Part shown: positions 6,759 to 60,872 of the stretch, in pieces
Position numbering within the stretch: position 1 is the stretch's first letter
How the letters are laid out: every line of letters starts with the position of its first letter
Assembly (NCBI RefSeq): GCF_041146345.1
Contig: NW_027191417.1
Location: 1,798,001-1,862,000 of the forward strand
From: Neodothiora populina
Lineage: Eukaryota
Reading direction: 5' to 3'
DNA length: 64,000 bases
The notes under the pieces: generated by a model
What the model was told of the DNA's origin: nothing
Databases searched by the model: none
Seen by the model: the letters and a program-made list of their open reading frames with translations, nothing else
Program-made: the position numbers and the translations under genes

Positions 6759-8397
6759 CTACTGTCCGGGAGCGATCAAGAGACCCTCCTTGGCTGCGTT
6801 ATGTGACCAACCACCGGCAAGAGCCTCGCCGCCGCTTCGTCGAGCGTGGTCGGCGATTCTTGCCTCAAGCTCGGGTCTGAAGTGTCTGATCAGACCCTGA
6901 ATGGGCCAGGCGAAAGCCTCACCCAAGGCGCAGATAGTGTGACCCTCGACCTGCTTGGTGAGTTCCTGCATCATGTCGATCTCGCGGGATCGGGCGGTGC
7001 CAGCCTCGAAACGCTTCATGATCTGGTCGGTCCACTTGGAACCTTCTCTGCAAGGAGTGCATTGTCCGCATGACTCGTGGTGGTAGAACTTGGAGAGACG
7101 GGAAATGGCGCGGACAACGTCGGTGCTCTTGTCCATGACAATGACGGCGGCCGTACCAAGACCAGACTGCGAGTCCTTCAGGGCGTCGAAGTCCATGAGT
7201 TGGTCGTCGCAGACATGTCGGGGAAGGATGGGAGTGGAAGAGCCGCCGGGGATGACGGCCTTGAGGTTGTCCCAGCCACCGATGACACCACCGCAGTGCT
7301 TGTCAATAAGCTCACGGAGAGGAATGGACATCTCCTCCTCGACGGTGCAAGGGTTGTTGACGTGGCCAGAGATACAGAAAAGCTTGGTTCCAGCGTTGCG
7401 CTCACGGCCGAAAGAGTTGAACCAGTTGGCACCACGACGGATGATGGTGGGAGCGACGGCGACGGTCTCTACGTTGGTGACGGTGGAAGGGCATCCGAAA
7501 AGACCGACAGCGGCAGGGAATGGAGGCTTGAGACGAGGCTTCCCGGGCTTTCCCTCGAGAGACTCGATGAGGGAGGTCTCCTCACCGCAGACGTAGGCAC
7601 CCATACCACGGTGAATGTAGACGTCAAAATCGTAGCCAGTGCCACATGCGTTCTTTCCGATGAGACCGGCTTGGTAGGCCTCCTGGATGGCGCGCTGGAG
7701 GACGGTGGCTTCGTGGTAGAACTCGCCACGGATGTAGATGTAAGCAGCAGTGCAGTTCATGGCGCGGCCAGCGACGAGACATCCCTCGATGAGCTTGTGG
7801 GGATCCTTGCGCATGATCTCGCGGTCCTTGCAGGTTCCGGGCTCGCCCTCGTCGGCGTTGATGACGAGGTAGCGGGGCTTGGTGTCCTTGTCCCAGTCCT
7901 TGAAGTTCATGAATGACTGTGCCAGTGTCAGTTGTGCATGTCTTGTTGCTTGTGAGACAGATGACATACCCATTTCATGCCAGAAGGGAAACCAGCTCCA
8001 CCACGGCCACGAAGACCGGAGGCCTTGATCTCTGAGATGATCTAATGATTGATATCAGCACCTGTTGTATTCTCTCTGAATCGTTCTGATGACGATTGAT
8101 CTGATATAGGACGAGTCATACCCAGTCGTGGCCCTTGAGAACAATCTCCTTCGTCTTGTACCAGTCTCCATACTTCATCGCGCTCTTGAGGTCGGTGCCG
8201 TGGTGGCCGTAGAGGTTCTGGAAGATGCGGTCCTCATCCTTGAGTCCTCGTGATCGGTTGACGGGAGGAGCATCTTGGACAGTGGCGAGCCCTCTTGCGG
8301 ATTGTGCGCTGGCGAGTTTGGAGGTGGCGGAGAGGGAGGAGGGAATACGGTGCGACGCCGCCGAAATGGCTTGTGCCGGTGCCTGTCGAGATAACAT
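6759..8397 (-). CDS. nuo-51: NADH:ubiquinone oxidoreductase 51 kDa flavoprotein subunit (NDUFV1/NuoF), mitochondrial
   Basis: Exons 8397-8122, 8041-7970, 7916-6759. Motifs [49 protein letters not shown] and HTICAL, with an N-terminal presequence. Confidence 0.98.
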
Positions 8398-13341: not shown

Positions 13342-14313
13342 CTAAACAGAGGGCCAGCCACCGCTCCAGCTGATCTTGTTGATACCAAGCTTCTTGTCGC
13401 CGTCGAGGTAGCTGACGGTGGTGTCGACGTAGTGGTAGTAGAGCACCCAGCCGTTCTTGGGGTCGTTGTAGACACCTTGGCCTCCGGGGCCGTAGACGTG
13501 GTCGTGGGAAGCGAGGACCTCGGTGCCGCCGCCGTTGAGGCACGACACCTTGTTCTTGTCGACGAAGCCGCTGGTCGGACTCGTTGATCTGCACACCATG
13601 ATCTTGTACTCGTCGCCCTTGGCCGGGCGCGACGTGTCGTAGTTGCAGCATTGGCCCGACGAGAAGAAGAGGTAGTAGTAGTTGTCGCGGTACACCATGT
13701 AGGAGCCCTCGAGGGAGTGAGTACCAGAACCGTTGAAGGCGATGTTGGTTGCTCCTGAGCCGCTGGTGCCGGTGAGGGAGGACTTCATCGTCGTCTGGAA
13801 GATGTCGGTCCAGAAACTGCCGAATTGCATGTAGTACTTGCCGTCACTGCCGACGTAGAGGTTGGGGTCGATGGCGTTGTAGGGCTTGCCGGTCGTGGAT
13901 GAGATGCCTGCGCTGCCGTGGTCGGTCCAGCTGCCGACTTCCATGGTCTTGGATGTTGCGACTCCGATCACTGAGTTCTGAGTGCCGAAGGCTGACACGG
14001 CGTAGTACATGTAGTAAGTTCCGCCGACATAGGAGACATCCGGTGCCCACATGTCCTTTGCGCCAGAGTTGTCAATCTTGGAGCCGCCCGAGAGAGCCTC
14101 ACCCTGGTAGACCCATGGTCCAGTCAGGGACGAGGCCTTGTGGATGGCAATACCACCACCGGTGGCAAAGCGGAAGTACTCTCCATCTGAAGTACGACGG
14201 ATGAGAGCAGGGTCGTGGGTGTTGGTGCACACACCAGAGCAAGCCATGGGATTAGCATAGCCAGCGACCATCGAGGCCAGGGCCAGAGGGACGGCGAGAA
14301 GAGAGAAAAGCAT
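13342..14313 (-). CDS. abnA: Secreted endo-1,5-alpha-L-arabinanase, GH43
   Basis: Intronless 323 aa ORF with a signal peptide and motifs [29 protein letters not shown] and YGPGGQGV, typical of fungal arabinanase A. Confidence 0.93.
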
Positions 14314-17048
14314 CTTGGTAGACTTCAGCTACTTCAAAGATGCTGAATGGACAAAGAGTAGAGCGGATGAGGATAGCAAGAGGAAGCGATCTGAGACAGC
14401 AGAATGAACCTACCTTTTATACAACAGAGCAGACACACCTCTATACATCTAGACAATCTCTTTGATGAAGTTATAGATGAAGTCTGAGTATTGCAATGTG
14501 CTCGCTTACAACGGACTACCCTAAAATGAAACTGCCTAGGTGCTGCTACCGTTCGCTCTGGAGGTGCCGCTGCAAGCACAACCTCCTGCGCGTTGGCCAT
14601 GGCTACTGGACTTCAGCCCTCACGAAGCAACCGCTCTAGACGACTATGTAGACTCGAACTCTAGGTGAAAGAAAACGGTGACAAATATTGTCTGTATCGA
14701 GAATGGAAGGAGGAAAGAAGATAATAGATCAAAGACACTCACCTCGTGCAGCGCCTCATGCAGCTGCTGGACGCTTGTCTCAAAGATCTTGCTTGCTCAA
14801 GGATGTAGCACACTTTGTTTCGTAGGGGGGATAGCCTATAGCAGAGATGTCTTAAGGACCCACCTCAAGTCCTCGGCGTTGTCTTGTCAGATTGAGGTGA
14901 AGCTCATCGACAGGCCGGCGAGCCGAGAAGGCCATAGTAACTCACGAGACAGCAGTGGTAGAAAATGCTTGCAGGTGGTGAGCGGCCCAGATGTGATGGG
15001 GCCATCGGGCATTCTGGTAGTGTGCAAGGAGGCCCCGCCACCAGTTTTGGATACATGGTGCGGCCCGCAGGTAATCGACTAGCGAAGGGTAGTCTGTACT
15101 GCTGAGGAGAGGACCTGACTTATTGAACTTTCGAAGCAGAGGCTAGTGGTTTCTAGGTTGGGGTCGAGAATGATATCCTTGCGAAGGTCCCAGCATCATG
15201 GCGGATCTGCGAGTCAGGGTCTGGTGTGCAGGACATCTGTGGGGTTTCAGATTGATCGTCTCGCACCTAGAGTAGTGTTTCTTCCATCCAATCCTCTGTC
15301 ACGCCAGACGCATATAGCGCCAACAAGCGTGACCCTCCGCGGTCTGCTCTGCTTCGAATCAGTGTCGTCTCAGATACAGCCTTCGGCCCCCTTGGCTTGA
15401 GCTAAGACTGCGACGGCATTAAGGAACGGCTGAGAGAGAGTGATGCAATAACCTTCAATATTTAATATCCATGTCTGCCCAGGCAGATGCCACGAAGTTG
15501 CTCAAGATGTTTAGTGTGTGCGAGGCCGCTGCACATGATCTCGCTCGGCAAGAAGCATTCGAACGGCTGTATTGATCAGAGGTACACGGATGAGTTGAGA
15601 TGTATGAGGGAGACTTCCCGTTCTAGACTGTAAAAGCATGGACGAAGCTCAAGCATAATTGCACTTCTTTAAGGTCTCTAGTGTTGAAGATTAATCGCTC
15701 GGCGGAGTTGCGGCCTAGGGACCGCACCAGTGAAGCTAGCTCTGATACAGTAAAGCTATCAGGGGAAATAACAACACTGACCGACCCACTGTCTGTGATG
15801 CTGTTCACATAACGGAGCGCGATAACGGCAGAGCATCCCGAGCGAGTCGGTTGAAAACATAACATGCGGCTGCCTCTTCAGGGAAGATTCACCAGCGCAG
15901 TGAGCGACAAAGCTCGCCCCGAGGACTGCGGCCTTTGTACGGGCATAGTGAAGGTCGGCTTTATTGTAAACCCCCGACCTGAGAATGTTTTCGCTTGAAG
16001 CTTATTCATCCACTTCACTTGTCTGATCCTACAACGCTCATGTTTTGTGTATCTGCTGATGTGCATGGCACATTTCGAGAAATAATAATCCCGCACTGCA
16101 GCTGATATATCATTGTTATACGTGCAGCAATAGATGGTGGGTCGTCCTCAATCTCTATTGCTGGGAAATGCGGCAAAGTAGCTTTAGGCAAGTACTGTAT
16201 AATAGATGACCCTCCACTCAACCTTGGACAATAGGCCGCCGGTACTTAAAGTGCAAGACAGGGTGGCTTGCGCATGTATTGATAGCCTTAACAAACAGCA
16301 TGGTCTGCACTATCAGAATCAAGTTCTGACAAACCGTCTACTTTATTCTTTAGTATGTGATTGCGACGGCTATACAGAATCCCTCTGCCGTCCTCGAATC
16401 GGGTAGCCTCCGACCTATGATACTTTCAGGTGGTTCTCAGCCATGGGTAGACAGGTGAACTGTCGTTTGTAACACTTCAGTTCGTTCTTAGGTTCCCTAG
16501 TAACTCGAGACCTCTTTACCGACGTGCCCAGGCTTAGCGTGATTGGGAGTTGAGAGGTGTCGGATCATTGGAAGGCAGTGATACGAGGCAGTCGTATATT
16601 CGCATTACTGCCTTTTCCAAGTATGTAAGGTTTGCTAATAGTAAGCTGATCTATATCTTTGTGGATAATGACAGTGTTGTTGACTGTTCAGGTACCTTAG
16701 CGTATACTGTCGGACCTTTCATCGGAGATAATTCGAACGGTACTACATAGGAATACATCTGGGATTGCATCCTTGCCAGTAAGCAAGTCTGGCGGATTTC
16801 AAATGTACGAGTCCAGTCCTATGTGTAATTCCCAATGGATGTTCAGAAAGTCGATAAGACCGAAGCCACCATCGTTTTGAAGATGGTCCAGATGCTTGAA
16901 GGATGCAAGCTCGAATCGTCATCAAGGCAGCAGCTTTTCCCGTGAAAACGTGGGCTAGCTGAATTGACTTTACGAGCGAAACTCAACAACTCGACGACAT
17001 TCATGGTGCGTCTGCAAACACAGAGATCAGGACATCATCAAGAAACAC

Positions 17049-18294
17049 ATGTCGTTGACTGCCACCATGTCGCATAAGTCTGAGATCAACGATCCAAATC
17101 CCGGCTTCGGTTGCGTGCCTCTCGTAGACAAGACCTGGACTGGACTTGCCTTGTTGCTAGTGCCATGGCAGCTGTCTGTGTTCACATTGCATAGACTTAG
17201 TAACATCGGCCATAATGAATACTCACTCAAGCGCGGCCTTGCTACCTGGCTAGCCCGAAGGTGAGACTTCTCTCAACCCCAGGGACGAATGCACTTGACC
17301 TGACATTGTCCCCAGTGTCCTGCCCCACTTTCCAATCACGGTATCAAGAGCTATGATTTCACCCAATATAGCCGGGGTCCTCGAGAAACCACGCTTTTGC
17401 GAGAACAAGGCCAATGTACACGATGAGTACGTTCGACAGGCGGACTTTTCAGCACAATGGCTCTTGAAGGGCCCGCCTGGTAAGGCGGTAGCCCCTGCCT
17501 CCTGTGACTTGGTCATCTACTACATGCACGGCGGCGCCTATCGTACCGGAGCTTGTGATGCGTCCCTCGTGTCGTTTCTTCGAATTGCAGAAATTCTCGC
17601 CACGAAGGGGATTTCTGTTGGAGTGCTGTCACTCAACTATTCGCTTACGCCCGAGGCGAAGTTTCCGAAGCCTATTGATCAGGCTGTAGCGGGTTACAAG
17701 TATCTGCTCCGCGAGGTTGGGGTCGATGCCTCGAGAATCGCCTTTCAAGGAGATTCTGCAGGCGGTCATCTTTCACTCTGTCTCCTCTCAATGCTGGCGT
17801 CTCACCGTCTGCCCAGTCCTGGTGCTGGAGTTATCCTTGTGTCTCCGTGGATAGATGTGCTCTGTTCATCAAGAAGTGGCTCATATGTTCGTAACAAGTA
17901 CAACGATTTTGTCGATGCGGACGACTTGGGAATGCAAGGGAGGGTCGTAGTTGGAGAGGCAGGAAGCTCCTCTTGGTATGCGGACTTCTCCCGTCCACTG
18001 ATCGATGGGCGTTCATGGAAAGATATAATCCAATGCAAAGTCTGGGTATGTGCCGGTAGTGGAGAAATCATGCTGGACGATATCGCCCGGTTCGTCGGCT
18101 TGATCAAATCTGAGAATATCGAAGCGGTACTGGACGTTAAAGATGGCGGCATGCACGTCTGGCAAGCTATACAGGATCGTTTCGTGGAGGATGCTTATCT
18201 GACAGCGCCTGGTCCTCAGTGTCCCGATGGCATCATGCTGGGTGCAGCAAACATCGCGCAAGGTGTACTATCGGTCTATCCGAAGCATAACTAG
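17049..18294 (+). CDS. Alpha/beta hydrolase, HSL family (Say1-like esterase/deacetylase)
   Basis: Intron 17261-17315 keeps the frame. HGGAY oxyanion motif, GDSAGG nucleophile elbow, SPW, GSGEIMLDD and a C-terminal His (GMHVW). Confidence 0.88.
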
Positions 18295-42473: not shown

Positions 42474-45151
42474 TCAGGTCTTGTTTTCGGCCTCTTTGGA
42501 AACCTCTCTGATCCTGGAGACGAGTTCGTCAATCTTGAAAGGCTTGGAAAGCACGCTGTCCATGCCGGCCGTTTTCATGTCTGCCTGCTGTTCTTGTCGC
42601 ACGTTCGCCGATACGCCTATGATCCGAACTCTGGGCAGGGAGTTCTCGGTCTCGTATTCTCGAATAGCTTTCGTAGCTGCATTGCCGTCCATGATTGGCA
42701 TCTCCTGGTCCATCAAAACGCAGTCGAACGCTGGCGACGTGGCGCCTGGGCCGATCGCGGCCTTGTAAGATTCGACAGCATCTTTGCCATTGTTCGCAGT
42801 CACGACTTCGAAGCCCTTTGATTGCATCTTGCGTTTGAGAATTTTCTGGTTGATGAGATTGTCCTCAACAAATAAGATCTTCAGGAAAGGCTGGTCTCCT
42901 TTCGTGCGATCTGTCAGTTGGGTGCGGCGATTGCGCGAAGTGTCCCCATCCTTGTCCTTGACATTCTTCCCATTTTGATCGATGTCGGGCTTTCGAGGGA
43001 TGTTGGACACAATGTCTGCTGTGTGACTCCATCTATCATCATTGTTCGACGAAGGTTCCACTCGTGGCGATTTTAGGGATTCTGGCACATCCTTGTCCTT
43101 TAGGTCCTTTTGTTGTATCTCCTCCGGAATGTGCAGGCCGTTCTGCATCTCTTCTTGATTCATACTTGCCCCATCTGGAGGAGTAGTCTCGCATCGTCGC
43201 ACACGGAAAAAGAACGCGAATGTGCTACCGCTTCCTTCCTTGGAGCTGACACCTATCTCTCCTCCATGTAGTTGACAGATCTTCCGCGAGATATTTAGGC
43301 CAAGCCCACTGCCGCCATAGATCTCCTCGGTCTTCGGAGTGGCCTGCCTGAAACGATCAAAGAGCTTCGTCTGGTTCTCGTTGGAAATTCCTATGCCCGT
43401 ATCACGTATCGCGACCGTGATATACAATGCCTCTCCATTGCCCCATTCGGCGCTGTGTGTCGAGTCCATATGGGTGACTTGATCGTCCAACTCGAAATAC
43501 ACAACATCAGGGGGATATGACGTTGGTCTTTCGATGGATGCTCCAACGTCAACAGCAATCTTTTTAGGCCCCTCTTTCTTAGCGGTAAACTTGATGGAAT
43601 TGGTCATCAGATTCACAAGCACTTGACTGATCCTCACGAGATCGGCCTTGACCCATTCCACCTTGTGCTTATTGTAGGAGGGATCAAGTTGGTAGTCGAA
43701 TCCTATGTGGCGTTTTCGCAGCTCGGGTTGGAAAATCTTCAACGAGTCCGCCATCTGCCGCTTCGGCTGGGTGTCCCTATTTATTTAGATCAGTGTCTAT
43801 TGGTATCTCAACTAGACAAGTTTTACTGCTTACTTTGGGGCAAGTGATAACATAGAGGCGTCGAGTTTCGAAAAGGACAGTACATCGTCGACAAGTGTCT
43901 TCTGATGTCCCACACATATCGATATAGTCTCACAAGCTTCTACGATATCATCGACGTTTATCGTGTCGGACCTGATCTTGCCATAATCAATCGCCTCAAG
44001 AATGTCTTCCTGGCAATGGAGTACCGCGCCTAACGGATTTCGGATTTCGTGACTGGACGACTTTAGATCAGACGACGAGAAGTTTAGCAAGTATTATTCC
44101 ACTCACCTCAGCATGTCGATGAAACGCTCTTGTTGTCGCTTACGTTCTTGAGCGTCCCGAGCTGCCTTCTTCTCCGAGAGTTCGGCAGCCTTGATCTTTG
44201 TAATGTCGACCACAGCACAGATGAAACCACCATAGCGTTTCAGACTAGCCTTCTCCAGATTTTCATCCTCAAGAGGACGCATGAGGAAAAGTCTCCACCT
44301 GGTCTCAATGTTAGCTGCATGGATGGCGATCGGTCGCAAGCATATCCTACGGTTCTTCCTTCCCATATGCTCTGAATTCGGTAGATAGATCAGTCCGAGA
44401 CTCGAAGGCCTCGCGGTATGCATTCATGACTCGATCATAGTCTTGCGGATGGATGGTTTTGGGCCATTTCTTGAATGATTTGTCGGTCCCTCCGTGGACA
44501 GTCAACTCATGAAATTGTTGGTTGACAAACAATGCCTCAGCTTGGTGGTCTAGTATTGCCAGTCCAGTCTATCTATAGTCAGAACATATATCCACGGCTA
44601 GTAATCGAGGAGCATCGCACCGGAAGCATCTCTGCAAACTTCTGGAAGAATGGCTGACGATCGAGAGAAATTCGTTGATTTGTTGGGCTGGAATCGAAGT
44701 TTCCTTTCGACGGATTCATCTCGTGCATGTGCTGTTCTGCATGACCACCTATGTGGCAACCAGAATCACATTGGTTGTCCGCGTTTTGTTGTTCTCCTTG
44801 TGGGTGGATGACTTGGACTACGATGCCATTCGCTTCACCAACGGTGAATGGACTGTATAATACAGGCCAATCTCGAAGGTGCTGTCTACCCTCAACATCA
44901 AAGGCTTGCACGGTCATACTCGAAGGCACGTCTCCATTCATGGCTGATCGTAATGTTTCTGCAAGTTCCTCAGGGACTACATCTTTCAGCGGTCCTCCTT
45001 GTTCAGTAGGAGTGCCCAGCAACTGCGCCCAGGGTTTGTTTTGCAACATAACAAGATCGTGTCCCACAAACATAGCAGCTGCAGATTGTAGAGATTCCAC
45101 GAACGCAGATATATTCTGGAGGCCTGCAGGCCATTCGCGCGCTGGACCCAT
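42474..45151 (-). CDS. Hybrid sensor histidine kinase (PAS, HisKA, HATPase, receiver)
   Basis: Exons 45151-44621, 44568-44351, 44298-44107, 44052-43834, 43776-42474. H box SHEIRNP, N box NLMTNSIKFT, DTGIGI, GSGLGL, receiver VEDN..MDQEMPIMDG..KP. The start may include a small extra upstream exon near 45250. Confidence 0.93.
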
Positions 45152-50421: not shown

Positions 50422-52827
50422 CTATCCGATCGGATTGCCAAAGTTGAATTCGGTGTGATCTAGGCTTCCAGCCCACAGGTCTTCATTGATGAGGGTCGGC
50501 GCGCATCCTGCCATCCAACTGGTGGCGTCCCACGTAGGTTCGAAGATGGACGCCATGGATGGATCATACATCTCAGTATTCGAATCACGGAGATGAGAAC
50601 CGCATAGGCTGAGGATCACATCGCGACATTTCCCTGCGCTCGGATTCATGCTTGTCATTGACTGTATCACCTCCAGTGTCGCCTCTATCTGCAAGCGCCA
50701 ACCCAGTGCAAGCGGTGACTGCGGCTTACTTCGGAGACAATGTACTGGAATCAGGACAGCCTGGAAGAGGAAGTATCTAAATTCATCGATCAGTGTTACT
50801 GAACACAACAGAAAACTAGAAATTGAACTTACAGCACGTAGAAGGCGGTCAGTCGAGTCTGATACTTGGTGTTCCAGAAGTTCTGTATGTGAGTAATGGA
50901 CTCCTGAGCAGCTTGGAGACATCTGTCAGTGGCTGCTTGTTCGTCCCATGGAAGCACTTCGTTTTCGGCCTGAAGCGCCCATCGTACTAAGCATGGTCGA
51001 TAACAAATGATTCTCAAATTTCTGAAACGCCAAGCATTGATGCCTTGTACCAAGGCGAATCGAGGATCGATAGTCATTCCAGCATCATCGGTGAAGTACG
51101 GCGGCACTTTCTGCAGCCAGGTGTGAGTAGCAGTATCGTCAAGTGACAGAAGCTGATCGGCCTTCGGTGGAGGATTGCTGATCAAGCGATTGTAGATCAT
51201 CATCGTATGTAGATGATAGGAAGCTTGCTCTCGAATGTACGTTGCAACAGTCGCCTCCTGTACCTCAATTGGCAGCATATTTGTGGCCGAGGTAAGATGC
51301 TATGAGAGTCAGCACATGTCAGAATCGGCATTGTTTGACAAACTTACATCTTCATGAGAATTACTCGGCAGTGCCGCATCTATGCCCTCTTGCGGCCACG
51401 TGAGCGGTCGGCTGTAAGTAATCGTTGCTCCTACATCCAGCACACATAGAGACCACCAGATTCTCCGCCTCATCTCTCGAGTCAAGGTAGTCATCTTCTG
51501 ACCCCCGAGCTCCTTGTGAAGACCCAAACCAATCGCAAGACGAAGGGCAAGACCTCCATAGCTATAACTGCTATTTGGCTTGTTACGTTTCTGCAAATAG
51601 TGCGCTGTCAAACCAAAGATCTGTACCATCGCAATATTTCCCATTTCTAGACAGTTCATCGAGAGATGTTGCTTTGCAGTCCTGAAAATGGCAATATCGG
51701 TATCATCCTGTGAACTTGTGCTGGATACAAAGGCTCCAGTCGCAGCAACCAAGTTCGCCAGGACAAGCCATGTGCCTTGGCTCGGACGAGGAATAGCATT
51801 AGCATACTGTGCCCGGAATGTCGGCTCATGCAGTGCAGGAAAGGTGGGATGATACAGGCTGAAATATGCATCAACAAAGGCGTCCGACATGGCCCGAGTT
51901 ACCAAAGCCTGAGCATGGACTATGGATGTCATCGACGCCTTCTGAGACTGTTTCAACAGCTGTTGCATATGTTGCTGACGCTCGTTCCTGGAGTCGGCAT
52001 CCCACGCTGGCCCTCTGCCCGTCTCCATCCACATAGTCCGCAGATGCGAGGCTCCAGAGGCCGTGCCCAGATAGCCGTAGTTAGCAGCATCTACAGTGAG
52101 AGTAGCCATGCCATCCATGATTTTTTTCACGCCCTCTTCTCCGCCTGCTGACGGTGGCGCAAAGTCACCTGATCCGAGACCGGCAGACGACTGTTCCTGT
52201 TCATCCCACTCGAACTCTTCGTCTGAGTAGTCAGTTGATGGATAAACACCCTCACCCCCTGCTGGACTTGCATCCGGTCTGACCGAAGGCGAGGAAACAT
52301 AGGGTTCATGTTCTGTAGGGGTCGACCACCATGACTGCGATGACTCGATTTTCACAGGCTCTATGGAATGATCATGCTGCTGGTTGGTTGGAGTCGCATG
52401 TAACTGGCCCCCATCCGACATTGACTGTCTTGGTGTCCCATTGTCTGATGAGCGTAATGGGGGAAGCACGGGTATATCTCCCGACACATCCTGATCAAGC
52501 AAAAAAGTAACCTGATCCTCCGTATACAGCCTTTTGAGGATGGCCTCGGCTCGCTGGAGACGGTGCTCAACCTCTGTGAGATGTCTGTTGCAGGCATATC
52601 AGTCCATCATTCTATCCGATAAGCGTCTTGAAAAGTTCGTACTTCCTTGTCAGAGGCGTGCGGCTATGTTTGTCATACAAGCAATGCCGTCTGTAACGTC
52701 TACAAGTCGAGCATTCGGGTATCTTGTGATCGCAATTCGCCTTGCGCCTACGACATTCCTTGCAAGCTAGGTTATCTTCCTGATGCGCAGACCGCTTCGT
52801 AGGAGCAGGAGTCGCGCGCGTAGCCAT
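50422..52827 (-). CDS. Zn2Cys6 transcription factor with a Gal4-like linker and fungal-specific TF domain
   Basis: ACKECRRRKANC..PECSTCRRYRRHCLY then RTPLTRK|HLTEVE. Middle region YFSLYHPTFPALH and AIGLGLH..RRRIWW. Three introns (about 52642-52585, 51346-51300, 50832-50777). Confidence 0.93.
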
Positions 52828-55272: not shown

Positions 55273-55338
55273 TGCTGTGGAGATTTTCGCTTATTCGCCT
55301 CTGCTCGAGTAATGGGCCAATCTGTTTAGAGAGAAAAT

Positions 55339-55399
55339 CTGGAGATGCTGGTGGGGAGAAAGTGGAGTACCCCGTGGGGGGACTATCACGGTTTATATA
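55339..55399 (-). promoter_or_regulatory. TATA box and cluster of CreA/Mig1-type SYGGRG sites upstream of the MFS gene
   Basis: TATATAAA on the minus strand at 55392-55399. CTGGAG 55339, GTGGGG 55351, GTGGAG 55362 and GTGGGG 55374 on the plus strand. Confidence 0.5.
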
Positions 55400-56493
55400 G
55401 TATCAAGTGCCGTGGCCCATTGCATGGACCTCTGGTCGGAACGGCCGCAAGTGTAGACCAGATTTACCGTGCATCTAGAATAGTACCACTGTGTACTATG
55501 GGCCACTAGGGTGGGAGTCGCCCAAGCCGACGTTATTGGATAGGGTCAGACTCACCCAGGCCAAGCATTCGGCTGGTCTTGGTACTACACGTGACGGTAG
55601 AAACACTCGCCGCAAATGTTTCCCGTGAAAAAGGGTATAGCACTAAACTGCAAGAAGCACTAGCTCGTCCCAGACTGCAAGACCAAACAGGCCGAAAACG
55701 TGAGCCGTGGGGGAAAATTGCGGCCAACTACTTCCTGTACCTTCCTTGCCTTGTGCATTTTGTGATGGGAATCGAAGAAGTGGCCTGCCCAACAGTAGAT
55801 GTCGGCTTGTCAAGAATGCCTGTAAGAAAGCGAATAGCAGAAACCCATCCAAGTGCCTACGGTCCATGACGACCGCTCATGTACATAGACGAGAAGTGAT
55901 CTCGACCACCTGCAGAGACCCGCTTGTCTCTACAAGTATTGTACACAATTGAGACACCTCCATAATCGACAGTGGCCCTTGCAATAATATCAGCCTCATC
56001 CCAGACTCACTCCCAACTCCACACCCGCCAAGAATAAGGTTTTGGCATGTGTCATTTCCACTGATTACTTAGCCCATCGGACCCAGAAGGATGGTCTGTG
56101 TCTCCTCCGCATATCCCCACACTCATCTACCCCGAGAGGAAGTGAGATCCAAGGGGTGGAAGATTCGATGCATCTGCAACAGTTTCGTGATATCCCGATA
56201 CGACGCCCAATGGGCAACTGTCGACCAAGTCGACCGTCACCCTGCTGCGGCGCAGGATTCTTTTGATCACGATCACAGGGCGACAGGTCGACATTCATCC
56301 TTGAATCATGAGGGGTGATGGTGGTTAGTAGTGATTGATATAATAATGTTGAAGTTGCCAAGTAAGTGAATGGGTAAGTCCATTTCATCTCAAGTTCATT
56401 CAGAGCATATCCAAAGCACTATTTCTGGCATAAATTTATTGTGCCTTGTAAGAAAATCCATATCAGATTGTACCCTGATACCCATTGCACATC

Positions 56494-58105
56494 ATGGTTC
56501 ACCTCACAAGCAACGACTTCTCCAATGGCAATGGCCACCTGCCTCAGACCATCGAGAAGATCGGCGTCATTGGCACGGGAGTCATGGGCTCCATGTTTGC
56601 CCTTCTCCTTGCATCCAACGGAATCACAGTCTCGATCCATGATCGCTCGGAACAGAGCATGCAGAACACTGCTGCCAAGGCCAAGGAGTCCGGTCTCTCA
56701 GACAAGATCATCGTCTGCAAGGACTACGACACTCTTTGCAGCTCGCTCGGATCGCCCAAGGTCTTTATCTTCAGTCTGCCACACGGCGGTCCCGGCAACG
56801 GGGTAGTCCAGACCCTGGCGCCCCATCTCCAGGCAGGAGACATTGTTGTCGATGCATCCAACGAAGACTACCGTGTCACGCAGAAGCGGCAGTCCATGCT
56901 CGAGCCCAACGGTGTCCACTACGTTGGCATGGGCATCTCGGGGGGCTTCAACGGTGCTCGCTACGGTCCTGCCATGATGCCTGGAGGCTCGACGGCGTCC
57001 GTGTCGCTGCTTCTTCCTCTGTTGCAGAAAATTGCAGCCAGAGATCCCCAGGGCCGTCCATGTGTTGCGCACATCGGACAGGGAGGCAGTGGCCATTATG
57101 TCAAGATGATCCACAATGGCATCGAGCACGGCATCATGTCAGCGCTGGCCGAGGCGTATGAGCTGATGACTTGCGTGGGCATGGATGGAGATGCCATTGG
57201 CAGCATGTTTGATTCGTGGTGCGCAGAAGGGCCGCTGGTAAGTTTTGCAATTCACCCCAACCCACAACAGATATGACTCTCCCTACTCTTCATGGATCAG
57301 ACTGACACAACAACCACACCAGAAAAACAACTTCCTCGTAGAAATCAGCGGACCGATCTGCCGCACCAAGAACAGCAAAGGCGGATTCCTGCTATCAGAC
57401 ATCCGGGACGCAGTAGTGCAAGACGCCAACGAATCCGAGGGCACAGGAGTATGGGCCAACGAAGAAGCCATCACAGCACATGTCCCCGCGCCCTCCCTAG
57501 CCGCAGCGCACAACTTCCGCCTCGCCTCCTCGGACATGTCCCTGCGCGCCACCATAAAGCCATACATCGGCGTCCTCGAAACCGAGCAGATGTACCCGCG
57601 CGAGAAGCAAAAGGCCGCCTTCCTGGATAAATTGCATGACGCAGTCTACGCCTCCGTGCTGGCGTGTTTCGCACAGGGTCTCGACCTCATGGCGCGCGCC
57701 GACGAGCGCGAAGGCTGGAACATCGACTTTGCCTCCGTCATCAACGTCTGGCGCGCCGGCTGTATCATCCGCTCGGATTACATCACGGACATCCTCGAGC
57801 GCCACTACTCGGCTTCAACAAAGAAAGTCCACCCCCTGTGCGGCGAGGACGTGTCGCGCGATCTGCGCCGCTGCATGCCCGCGCTGAAGTCGGTCGTCAT
57901 TGCTGGACTGGAGGTCAACGCCCACCTTCCTTGTCTCGGGGCGTCGCTCGAGTATCTGAAGTACATGTCTTGCGAGACGCTGCCGACGAACTTCATGGAG
58001 GCGCAGCTGGACTGCTTTGGTGCGCATGGGTATGATCTCAAGACGGAGCCAGTCAGGAGGTTCGCCAAGGGCCCGCATCACAGTGATTGGTCTGTTTCCG
58101 CTTAA
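56494..58105 (+). CDS. 6-phosphogluconate dehydrogenase-like decarboxylating dehydrogenase (divergent paralog)
   Basis: Exons 56494-57237 and 57323-58105. GTGVMG, GMGISGG..GARYGP..MPGG, GHYVKMIHNGIE, GTG, WRAGCIIRS and FGAH give a full-length 6PGD fold. Confidence 0.93.
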
Positions 58106-59159: not shown

Positions 59160-60872
59160 TCAGATCACGGACTCGATATCGCTCTCGACGTCGGCCTCGT
59201 CGGCCTTTTTCCGCCTCTCCTCGCTCATCTCGGCATATGTCGCCCAGCTGAGCAGCAAGAAGGCCGCGATGATCAGGACACCTCCCGCCACGGCGGCGCC
59301 GCTCAGCGGGCTGTTCAGCGGGGGAGGCAGCAATTGATCGACGACGGCGACGAGGAAAATCGTCAGCAGTGCAGCGACGGAGCTGAGTACGGGACTGGTC
59401 AGGGAGATCAAGACGAGAAAGGAGCCCGAGAAGGTGGCGTTTGCGAGGACGGAAATAAACAGCATCCAGGCTGCTTCGCCGCGGGGCAGGGCAAAGGGCT
59501 CGATGCCCGTGTAGTGCAGGATCGGAATGGGGATCCAGAGCACGCAGAGGGTGAAGACGCCGATCATGCTGCCGAAGGTGTTTGCGAAGATCATGCCTCG
59601 GCCCGGACTGCAGCCTTCGGGGGGACAGGCGACTTTCTTGTAGAGAACCTCGTAAAAGCCGTAGAGCACGCTGCCGACGCCGATGACAATGTTGCCCAGG
59701 GCGCGGTTGCTGGCTTCGTCCTTGTCCGGGGCGTCGGGTCCGCCTGCGCCTCCGCCGCTCTTGCTGCCGTGTTTGCTCGGGCTGCTGTCTCCGTAGGCGA
59801 CGACGAGGACGCCGACGATGGCGACGCCGACGGCGAAGATCTTGCTCCACTTTAGCTTCTCGTGCAGCATGGGGATGGCGAAGGCGTAGGCGAAAAAGGC
59901 CGAGCAGTTGTAGATGGCGGTCAAGTCGCTGGCGGTGGTCAGATCGACGGCGACATACCAGCTGCCTCCGGCCACGGTCAGGGCGCATGTGACAAAGGCG
60001 GTGGTGCGAACAAAATAAGGCACGGGCGACTTCTTGTGCAGATGAGGCGGGATGTGCAGAGTCTGGTGCTCGACCATCTGGGCGGTCTGGCGCAAGAGCT
60101 GCTTGTGTCGGCGCCAGAATGCGTCCCACGGCATGCTCCATTTCTGCAGGCGGATGATGAGCAGCTGGGTGGGATAGAGCAGTGACCACGAGCCGTGGGT
60201 CAGGTAGAGCATGCAGTATGCCTTGTTCCACTTGAGATTGTGCTGGATATAGACGGCGGTCTCGGTCTGGATGGTGAAGGAAATCAGACTCATGATCAGG
60301 AAACAGGCAGCGTAGATGTATTTCTTCCTCGTGGCAGCGCGGGCCTCGACCTCGGGGTCTCGTTCTCTGAAGGTCGAGCGACGGGTGCGCAGGACGGGGC
60401 CATCTGGAGAGGAGTAGTCCTGGTATTTGTCTCGGTCTGCGGCCAATAAAGGCTGGGAATGGGAATGTGGATTGGGATGCGCCTTTTGCCTGTCAACGGC
60501 GGGTCTCAGATCTGAAGGCATTTCTCTTGTGCCTCTGCCTCTGCCTCTGCCTCTGTGGTCCTGCGAGTCCTGCGAGTCCTGCGAGTCCTGCGAGTCTCGG
60601 TCGCTCTCTCTTTCTTGTTCTTCTCCTTCGGCCCAATGGTCCGGGTGTGGCAGGTCTACAAAGGGACTCGAGTTCCTCGAAGGCGGCTGTCCATTCGACG
60701 ACTGCGACAGGTGCACGAGGCTACTGGACGCCGACTCGACGTCTTGATTAGAGTAAGGGCGCAGGGAGGAGGCCAACAAGGGGGAGGAGCGTGGTGGCTG
60801 AGATGGCGGCGGTGGTAACAATGAGGGAGAAGGACCAGGAGCAGGTGGCGGCGGAGGAGTGACTCTAGGCAT
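59160..60872 (-). CDS. EamA/DMT superfamily (SLC35F-like) transporter
   Basis: 570 aa intronless ORF with about ten hydrophobic segments, SDLTAIYNCSAFFAY and LISLTSPVLSSVA. The N-terminus is low-complexity, so the true start may be downstream. Confidence 0.9.
   Translation of the reverse strand: MPRVTPPPPPAPGPSPSLLPPPPSQPPRSSPLLASSLRPYSNQDVESASSSLVHLSQSSNGQPPSRNSSPFVDLPHPDHWAEGEEQERESDRDSQDSQDSQDSQDHRGRGRGRGTREMPSDLRPAVDRQKAHPNPHSHSQPLLAADRDKYQDYSSPDGPVLRTRRSTFRERDPEVEARAATRKKYIYAACFLIMSLISFTIQTETAVYIQHNLKWNKAYCMLYLTHGSWSLLYPTQLLIIRLQKWSMPWDAFWRRHKQLLRQTAQMVEHQTLHIPPHLHKKSPVPYFVRTTAFVTCALTVAGGSWYVAVDLTTASDLTAIYNCSAFFAYAFAIPMLHEKLKWSKIFAVGVAIVGVLVVAYGDSSPSKHGSKSGGGAGGPDAPDKDEASNRALGNIVIGVGSVLYGFYEVLYKKVACPPEGCSPGRGMIFANTFGSMIGVFTLCVLWIPIPILHYTGIEPFALPRGEAAWMLFISVLANATFSGSFLVLISLTSPVLSSVAALLTIFLVAVVDQLLPPPLNSPLSGAAVAGGVLIIAAFLLLSWATYAEMSEERRKKADEADVESDIESVI
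60531..60596. repeat. Coding tandem repeats (GCCTCT)x4 and (GTCCTGCGA)x4, encoding RG and DSQ repeats
   Basis: Seen directly in the N-terminal region of the EamA ORF. Confidence 0.9.

Follow-up and report, generated by a model that had tools for sequence, protein, structure and literature searches.

By its sequence and those of its relatives, the protein encoded by one gene of the fungus Neodothiora populina is a new member of the 6-phosphogluconate dehydrogenase (6PGD) family, with a rebuilt pocket for the tail of the substrate and an NAD-type cofactor site. The gene lies on the forward strand at positions 56494-58105 of a 64,000-nucleotide stretch (positions 1,798,001 to 1,862,000 of contig NW_027191417.1, assembly GCF_041146345.1), which we refer to as the window. 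It belongs to a clade that is widespread in fungi and mislabelled as Gnd. We favor the reading, at a probability of about one half, that the protein is an NAD-preferring, 6PGD-type oxidative decarboxylase of an imported, unphosphorylated hydroxy acid. For this reading we infer 6PGD-like chemistry, NAD preference, a free-acid substrate, and a functional link to the transporter and regulator encoded next to it.

The window DNA is fungal, and the gene consists of two open frames interrupted by a short intron (Table 1). The joined exon translations give a protein of 508 residues that is letter-identical to the deposited sequence P0003, named 'hypothetical protein AAFC00_005006 [Neodothiora populina]'. 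The codon boundary of the intron was the same in all five orthologous metagenomic loci examined (L014, L061, L062, L063, and L065). Pfam detected NAD_binding_2 (PF03446, E 4.7e-35, 121 bits) and matched PF00393 twice, once in exon 1 (E 3.4e-14, 53 bits) and once in exon 2 (E 2.7e-61, 208 bits). The gene is presumably a second copy beside a normal Gnd in the same fungus.

An AlphaFold model built from the clade alignment had a mean predicted local distance difference test score (pLDDT) of 91.2 and a predicted template-modelling score (pTM) of 0.91. The model was weakest at the N-terminal 17 residues and near a clade-specific insertion, and the block of residues 281-290 averaged a pLDDT of 70. 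Every solved structure that it matched was a canonical or a short-chain 6PGD, and its similarity to the solved long-chain enzymes was high (TMq 0.83-0.88) at about 30% identity. The protein shares its three-part architecture, fold, and catalytic set with canonical long-chain 6PGD (EC 1.1.1.44; sheep 1PGP/1PGN, yeast Gnd1 2P4Q, human 2JKV), and presumably also the tail-swapped dimer. Yet it scored below the cut-offs of both NCBIfam Gnd equivalog models (NF006765, 393.9 versus 413; TIGR00873, 349.5 versus 426.7). The short-chain NAD-type model TIGR00872 (gnd_rel) was not reached either (168.8 versus 297.2), and in place of the short-chain architecture of about 300-350 residues the protein has 508 residues with a long tail (TMq about 0.5 to 6XEQ, 6VPB, and 8IHE). 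Weak NCBIfam matches over residues 21-238 were to HIBADH, tartronate semialdehyde reductase, and L-threonate dehydrogenase. The marks of the beta-hydroxyacid dehydrogenase superfamily (PGDH group), a Rossmann domain, a conserved Ser-Gly-Gly, and a catalytic Lys and Asn (PMC8900737), are all present in the protein.

We then compared the active site residue by residue, using sheep 6PGD (1pgn) for sites in the C-terminal half and the Geobacillus and Lactococcus enzymes for those in the N-terminal half, and checked the codon positions of all key residues against the window DNA. Positions of canonical 6PGD are given in sheep numbering. In a 2022 structural review (PMC8900737), Tyr191, Lys260, and Arg287 are described as encircling the 6-phosphate, Lys260 and Arg446 are termed crucial for binding it, and the main-chain amide of Lys260 is said to help. 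The counterparts of Tyr191, Lys260, Arg287, and Arg446 in the window protein are H212, E287, R314, and L477, so that Arg287 alone is retained and three of the four phosphate ligands are replaced. Kept are the catalytic Lys183 and Glu190 together with His186, Asn187, Asn102, Ser128-Gly-Gly, Thr262, and His452. The original prediction, made from this DNA alone, had named K183, E190, N102, S128-G-G, R287, and H452 as kept, Y191, K260, and R446 as changed to H, E, and L, SGGEEG as changed to SGGFNG, and the N-R-T motif as changed to D-R-S; the alignments bear out all of these, and its approximate coordinates agree with the verified codons.

Changes are also found on the cofactor side. According to the same review, Met13 and Glu131 position NADP+ for hydride transfer from C3, Asn32-Arg33-Thr34 contact the 2'-phosphate and set NADP+ specificity, and an Asp in place of Asn32 hinders the 2'-phosphate (PMC8900737). 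In the window protein Glu131 is replaced, the turn reads D-R-S, and the position of Lys75, as aligned to bacterial 6PGDs, is occupied by a conserved Pro96. A five-residue acidic insertion precedes position 260.

To see how widely these changes are shared, we used exon 2 as the query among longer proteins, which gave about 50 fungal proteins at 159-592 bits followed by canonical 6PGDs at 128 bits or less. We tabulated 41 of the 50 best matches and 10 of the 70 lower, canonical ones. At position 260 all 41 fungal paralogs have Glu, always after a conserved V-V-Q-D-x-x-x-(S/T/E) insertion, and the canonical sequences have Lys (7), Leu (2), or Gln (1). Position 446 is Leu in 38 and Met in 3 paralogs and Arg in all 10 canonical sequences; position 191 is His in 16 and Gln in 25, against Tyr in 10 of 10; and position 131 is Tyr in 28, Phe in 8, Ser in 4, and Trp in 1, against Glu in 10 of 10. 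Among the 40 paralogs covering position 32, 38 have Asp and 1 has Glu, while the canonical sequences have Asn (8), Asp (1), or Ser (1); Arg33 is kept in only 6 of these 40, the window protein included. By comparison, K183, H186, N187, E190, S128-G-G, N102, T262, R287, and H452 are invariant in all 51 sequences. The window protein carries the full clade signature, that is, E at 260 with the V-(V/T)-Q-D insertion, L/M at 446, H/Q at 191, and a residue other than Glu at 131. Because it is conserved across the clade, the pattern is more than chance.

The two groups remained distinct in wider samples. We ran 1.84 billion representatives against a profile built from 40 clade members. Among the 50 of the 150 best matches that were aligned, 25 carried the signature and 25 were fully canonical, with no full-length sequence of mixed type; one oddity, P0154, departs at its C-terminus. 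Of the 25 canonical representatives, 7 have Asp at position 32. These retain R446 and Y191, Lys or Arg at position 260, and in most cases E131, so a change of cofactor does not by itself entail a change of the pocket. R446 and Y191 were retained in all 35 canonical sequences tabulated, those with Asp at position 32 included. When 41 signature and 34 canonical sequences were placed on a maximum-likelihood tree, a single branch split the two groups (SH-like approximate likelihood-ratio test, SH-aLRT, 99; 1 change versus a shuffled mean of 25), the alignment having retained the signature columns and the canonical rows being of unknown taxonomy. The window protein fell into a group of 11 rows with a support of 100. 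We also collected 80 metagenomic loci with two peptide patterns spanning positions 191 and 446; these two columns are circular in that set, and in the independent columns 75 of the 78 loci covered have Glu at 260, while 79 of 79 have Tyr, Phe, or Ser at 131.

Two unusual entries were seen within the clade. In the 554-residue signature representative P0136, N102 and N187 are both replaced by Asp, S128 is Ala, position 260 is Thr, and the insertion is longer; it may be a degenerate or mispredicted member. Deposits from the bdelloid rotifer Rotaria sp. Silwood1 include clade members (P0035 and its cluster) on contigs of up to 780 kb, which group among the fungal sequences on the tree and thus point either to contamination or to a transfer of the gene into the rotifer.

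A column comparison of 40 clade and 34 canonical sequences identified 15 positions that are conserved within each group yet differ between the groups. With the canonical residue in brackets, these are L38 (Asn), H97 (Ala), E124 (Ser), V279 (Ala) with V280-Q281-D282 inserted after it, E287 (Lys), H301 (Gly), H311 (Val), F364 (Tyr), K461 (Asp), F472 (Leu), E474 (Gln), and L477 (Arg). Within the clade Q281, D282, E287, and H301 do not vary, H311 is 95% and K461 93% conserved, and H311 lies one helical turn ahead of the retained Arg314. We compared five distinct orthologous loci over 750 ungapped bases of exon 2, which contains the insertion, the His residues, K461, and the tail. The ratio of nonsynonymous to synonymous substitution rates (dN/dS) was 0.04-0.08 in all 10 pairs. 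The clade is under strong purifying selection, and the conserved columns indicate a phosphate pocket that is rebuilt and not decayed.

These observations can be joined into a mechanism. In a homodimeric long-chain enzyme, Lys204 and Glu211 would act by general-base catalysis to oxidize the 3-hydroxyl of a 2,3-dihydroxy acid, with hydride passing to the nicotinamide; the resulting 3-keto (beta-keto) acid would be decarboxylated, the enediol tautomerized, and a ketose one carbon shorter released. The mechanism of the family is expected to be kept because all residues that hold C1 to C4 of the substrate and its carboxylate are unchanged. In the distal pocket, two cationic ligands are lost (K260 to E, R446 to L), Y191 has become His, and the five-residue acidic insertion comes with new invariant Gln, Asp, His, and Lys residues, which leaves a conserved site that is less cationic. 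With these cationic ligands lost, three acidic residues gained (D282, E287, and E474), and the insertion in place, a dianionic phosphate would no longer be held in the canonical way. The cofactor preference would shift toward NAD+ given Asp50 and the clade-wide loss of Arg33 and Lys75, and a preference of the window protein for NAD is likely on this evidence. The substrate would not be 6-phosphogluconate but, most probably, a sugar acid without a phosphate or a comparable hydroxy acid. It would be brought in by a divergently transcribed transporter of the anion:cation symporter (ACS) type, and the neighboring Zn2Cys6 factor would regulate the genes. An ACS-type carrier next to the enzyme, with no kinase gene near, is in keeping with an imported free organic anion. 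D-xylonate and L-threonate have the C2/C3 configuration of D-gluconate, and these three would be the first candidate substrates. We found no kinase gene near the 6PGD-like gene when open reading frames of the window and the loci of a second lineage (see below) were compared with Pfam.

The gene neighborhood was analyzed next. The enzyme gene is flanked by the carrier gene, transcribed divergently, and beyond it lies the gene of the Zn2Cys6 factor; the intergenic region between carrier and enzyme is presumed to be a shared promoter region (Table 1). Exon pieces of the carrier matched only TIGR00893 (ACS, 'D-galactonate transporter' subfamily) and HpaX, both below the cut-off as expected for pieces. 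Many relatives of this carrier are named 'pantothenate transporter liz1' by their sources, and two of its exon pieces gave zero matches to solved structures at E <= 0.01.

Table 1 Features of the 6PGD-like gene, its neighbors in the window, and genes found beside distant clade members.
Feature	Position	Strand	Basis or remark
Exon 1 of the 6PGD-like gene, residues 1-248	56494..57237	+	Rossmann NAD_binding_2 domain and start of the 6PGD helical domain
D50-R51-S52 replacing the N32-R33-T34 NADP turn (NR(T/L) in bacterial references)	56641..56649	+	Alignment
S149-G-G-F152-N153-G (SGGEEG to SGGFNG); Ser-Gly-Gly substrate/nicotinamide contacts kept, Glu131 to Phe152	56938..56955	+	Alignment
K204 (K183), H207, N208, E211 (E190) kept; Y191 to H212 (57127-57129), HNGIEYG to HNGIEHG	57103..57129	+	Alignment
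Intron, 85 nt, GTAAGT at 57238, ACTGAC branch site, CAG ending 57322	57238..57322	+	Canonical fungal signals
Exon 2, residues 249-508 (260 residues) and TAA	57323..58105 (coding to 58102)	+	Remaining 6PGD C-terminal domain and tail
Clade-specific loop V279-V-Q281-D282-A-N-E-S-E287-G-T289: five-residue insertion, K260 to E287 (57437-57439), T262 kept	57413..57445	+	Alignment
H301 and H311 (clade-specific; canonical Gly, Val) and kept R314 (R287)	57479..57520	+	Alignment
K461 (canonical Asp), E474 (canonical Gln), R446 to L477 (58007-58009), H452 kept as H483; last helix and subunit-swapped tail	57959..58027	+	Alignment
Zn2Cys6 fungal transcription factor, AAFC00_005004, 732 residues; Cys6 motif 52764-52681	50425..52827	-	Pfam Fungal_trans, protein match P0433
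Multi-exon major facilitator superfamily (MFS) transporter, ACS (Dal5/liz1-like) family, AAFC00_005005, 517 residues	53521..55272	-	Pfam MFS_1, TIGR00893, P0313
1.2-kb divergent intergenic region, MFS gene / 6PGD-like gene	55273..56493	.	Gene coordinates
EamA-like membrane protein, long Pro/Ser-rich N-terminal region with SQD repeat	59160..60872	-	Convergent with the 6PGD-like gene
bHLH protein	from 62492	+	Window open reading frames versus Pfam
Pex2/Pex12 peroxin gene beside the 6PGD-like gene	L003:8567-9445, L027:8164-9672, L035:3771-5054, L042:825-2432, L071:8520-9398		Five loci, 65-76% DNA identity
FluG-type gene (Amidohydro_2 and glutamine-synthetase catalytic domain)	L044:6382-9175, L054:6406-9229, L080:1130-3887		6PGD-like gene 583-826 nt downstream, same strand

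Conservation of the neighbors was examined with tblastn of the window genes against the 80 metagenomic loci. An ACS-type MFS gene was found divergently upstream of the 6PGD-like gene in seven of them (L014, L015, L061, L062, L063, L064, and L065). In L061, L063, and L074 the gene directly downstream encodes a transcription factor with 40% identity over about 430 residues and additional matching exons; it is thus on the side of the enzyme opposite to that in the window. Pfam confirmed Zn_clus, Fungal_trans, and MFS_1 at the loci of this second lineage. Relatives of the factor and the carrier that are 74-89% identical occur in other Dothideales (Taxawa, Delphinella), while the best relative of the enzyme is 62% identical and comes from other fungal classes. 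The enzyme is thus more patchily distributed than its neighbors, and these identities suggest that its gene either disappeared from an older pair of factor and carrier or was inserted next to it. Two assignments to shared contigs were also noted: P0440 and P0318 were both assigned to a contig of 4,641 bases, and the paralogue P0008 and the factor homologue P0475 to a Logan contig of 27,294 bases, the latter a weak hint of a third lineage. In the second lineage, the regulator is followed (L061:14709-17657, L063:6290-9221) by genes for a HAD/phosphomannomutase-like hydrolase and a flavocytochrome-b2-like 2-hydroxy-acid dehydrogenase (Cyt-b5 and FMN_dh), neither of which is in the window.

Several points weigh against the free-acid reading. 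On the protein side, the change of K260 to Glu is weak evidence when taken alone and is not diagnostic, since this position is Leu or Gln in 3 of the 10 canonical sequences and the main-chain amide contributes to binding. The three (P0057, P0068, and P0074) keep R446, Y191, R287, and E131, so by their sequences the Lys260 side chain is not universally required for canonical-type 6PGD. The kept R287, T262, and H452 and the gained K461, H301, and H311 might bind an anionic group, and the latter three might compensate for the lost ligands of the 6-phosphate or bind another charged tail. The window protein retains Arg33 in its D-R-S turn, and the make-up of the tree alignment given above counts on the same side. 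As to the neighborhood, the seven loci with the MFS gene amount to five distinct sequences of 84-92% DNA identity, one genus-level group whose enzymes are about 57% identical to that of the window; because the loci are not independent, the trio of carrier, factor, and enzyme is common to two well-separated lineages and not to eight. Between the two lineages, the C-terminal parts of the carriers share only about 35-47% identity, and the carriers, though of the same family, are probably not orthologs. Fungi in which no paralog was detected carry MFS proteins 60-66% identical to that of the window, and N. populina itself has a 73% paralogue. At L059, the metagenomic locus with the enzyme closest to that of the window (67%), carrier and factor are absent within the 1.6 kb of upstream flank, even at E <= 1. 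Distant clade members lie in other contexts, beside a Pex2/Pex12 or a FluG-like gene, and the trio is absent there.

The original prediction had proposed an NAD-linked decarboxylase of a free acid. The conserved substitutions, the ACS-type neighbor, and the missed Gnd cut-offs lend that proposal partial support and make it the best backed of the readings, while the new invariant His, Lys, Asp, and Glu residues could compensate for the lost ligands and leave the part concerning the phosphate less secure. Its pattern of NAD use holds for the Asp at position 32, the effect of which on the 2'-phosphate is documented (PMC8900737), and is made less certain by the Arg33 that the window protein keeps.

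The alternatives differ mainly in what the rebuilt pocket would hold. The protein may be a true, NAD-linked 6-phosphogluconate dehydrogenase, for instance of a catabolic gluconate route, in which the phosphate is bound by R314, T289, K461, H301, H311, and H212. All catalytic residues are kept along with R287, T262, and H452, the clade conserves its newly gained cationic or protonatable residues, the Gnd models score high though below threshold, and NAD-preferring 6PGDs exist, as does Asp at position 32 in the 7 canonical representatives mentioned. We nevertheless consider this unlikely, as the canonical sequences with Asp at position 32 all keep R446 and Y191, the clade gains three acidic residues (D282, E287, and E474) in or close to the site, the surroundings contain no kinase gene, both equivalog cut-offs were missed, and Lys260 and Arg446 are the residues called crucial for the 6-phosphate (PMC8900737).

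A tail of another charge is, in our judgment, slightly less probable still. It could be cationic, as in an amino- or ammonio-hydroxy acid held at D282 and E287, or an anion such as a sulfonate or an aldaric carboxylate held at R314, K461, and the His residues. The pocket is not simply hydrophobic, and its conserved charged residues are of both signs. Carriers of the ACS family move zwitterionic as well as anionic nutrients, and the liz1-type names among the relatives of the window carrier are in line with this. Glutamine-synthetase-like enzymes of the FluG type act on amines. In a distant subclade a FluG-like gene lies 583-826 nucleotides upstream of the 6PGD-like gene, and in L054 an amidase (15879-17336) lies beyond it; the DNA of L044 matches that of L054 at 84% identity, with L080 far more diverged, so the pairing is conserved and may point to an amine- or amide-linked pathway in that subclade. 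But the FluG link is absent from the window and its own subclade, and E287 may merely pair with R314. The possibility that the enzyme does not decarboxylate, and interconverts hydroxy and keto acids or runs mainly in the reductive direction, appears quite improbable. Glu131, which has a role in placing the cofactor (PMC8900737), is replaced clade-wide, so that the hydride geometry may differ, and the superfamily is rich in such enzymes, some of which gave the weak matches listed above. On the other hand, the protein has a complete 6PGD C-terminal domain and retains H452 as well as E190, H186, and N187, the last three being common to the decarboxylating group. It also clusters with the long-chain 6PGDs, apart from the short beta-hydroxyacid dehydrogenases. 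A decaying or non-catalytic copy of Gnd is very improbable. Several canonical ligands are lost and P0136 is aberrant at N102, S128, and N187, but the frame is intact, the intron conserved, and the predicted fold confident, and the low dN/dS, the invariant catalytic residues, and the clade's own invariant residues led us to reject the pseudogene reading.

We next placed the protein among known systems. It differs from canonical 6PGD by its identity of about 30%, the replacement of Tyr191, Lys260, Arg446, and Glu131, the acidic insertion, D-R-S for N-R-T, Pro for Lys75, the Gnd hidden Markov model scores below cut-off, and a separate branch of the tree. NAD preference is known in the 6PGD family, as in Bacillus GntZ. 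The short-chain NAD-preferring enzymes of Gluconobacter and Gluconacetobacter (6XEQ, 6VPB) and Mycobacterium Gnd2 (8IHE) likewise have an acidic residue at the position of Asn32, at the end of the second beta-strand, a change that accompanies NAD+ preference (PMC8900737). Unlike the enzyme proposed here, they still use 6-phosphogluconate, and the short-chain ones are without the long tail of the window protein. In animals, L-gulonate is converted to L-xylulose by the dehydrogenase CRYL1 and the decarboxylase C11orf54 (PMC12337341), which is the same net chemistry as proposed here and shows that oxidative decarboxylation of a free sugar acid is physiologically used elsewhere. That route employs two unrelated proteins, whereas the window would use one 6PGD-type protein for both steps, and the same paper describes fungi as typically lacking the CRYL1/C11orf54 gene set (PMC12337341). 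As for gene order, the window resembles other fungi in that a transcription factor of the Zn2Cys6 type, an MFS carrier, and an enzyme are adjacent, with carrier and enzyme divergent. Small catabolic clusters in which a pathway enzyme is grouped with a transporter and a Zn2Cys6 regulator are a general pattern in fungi. The window differs from them in having three genes only and in the restriction of the trio to two lineages.

The clade has so far been treated as Gnd in public resources. The original prediction had expected automatic annotation to mislabel the protein in this way, and clade members are indeed named '6-phosphogluconate dehydrogenase, decarboxylating' by their sources, some of them 'NADP(+)-dependent', though the window protein falls below the cut-offs of the curated models. 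The nearest atlas clusters, mostly from Ascomycota and with 51-211 members each, are labelled with these automatic names too. Every 6PGD homologue is at present counted as EC 1.1.1.44 in fungal metabolic models and genome annotations. In an Aspergillus niger model, five enzymes are assigned to this number by phylogeny (PMC6231085), and a paper on fungal sugar metabolism likewise places paralogues there by phylogeny (PMC9781776). A search of full-text literature, which also covered twelve locus tags or accessions of clade members and had subscription journals and supplements outside its reach, returned no characterization of the clade.

If the clade acts on a free acid with NAD, fungal models overstate the capacity for NADPH production and miss a catabolic route. 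Such an enzyme would provide a non-phosphorylative counterpart of the oxidative pentose-phosphate step, by which acids from plant tissue or fungal oxidases could enter central metabolism with a yield of NADH. The family would exemplify the rebuilding of a phosphate pocket around a fixed catalytic core, and it could be considered as a biocatalyst for the production of rare ketoses from aldonic acids. A broader proposal, which we put forward tentatively and regard as possible but doubtful, is that the clade forms an unrecognized fungal family of hundreds of sequences for the one-enzyme, NAD-linked oxidative decarboxylation of free sugar acids, whose subclades were recruited to different pathways. 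Example reactions would be D-gluconate to D-ribulose, D-xylonate to a tetrulose, and L-threonate to dihydroxyacetone, and the recruitment would have involved an ACS transporter and regulator in the window and a FluG-like ligase and an amidase elsewhere.

Some further candidates and neighbors were considered. The EamA-like gene downstream of the enzyme was rejected as a cluster member, with a tblastn relative in 0 of the 80 loci. The adjacency of a Pex2/Pex12 gene in five loci could be plain synteny or a functional link. These Pex2 neighbors prompted us to consider peroxisomal targeting by the C-terminus, which was set aside: the ends of the aligned clade members (e.g. ...SVSA, ...KPA, and ...PAK) do not match the pattern of peroxisomal targeting signal 1 (PTS1). 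Elsewhere in the window, genes on the reverse strand encode a GH43 glycosidase (13345-14328), the 51-kDa flavin mononucleotide (FMN) subunit of complex I (6762-8054), and a hybrid histidine kinase with a receiver domain (42477-43784).

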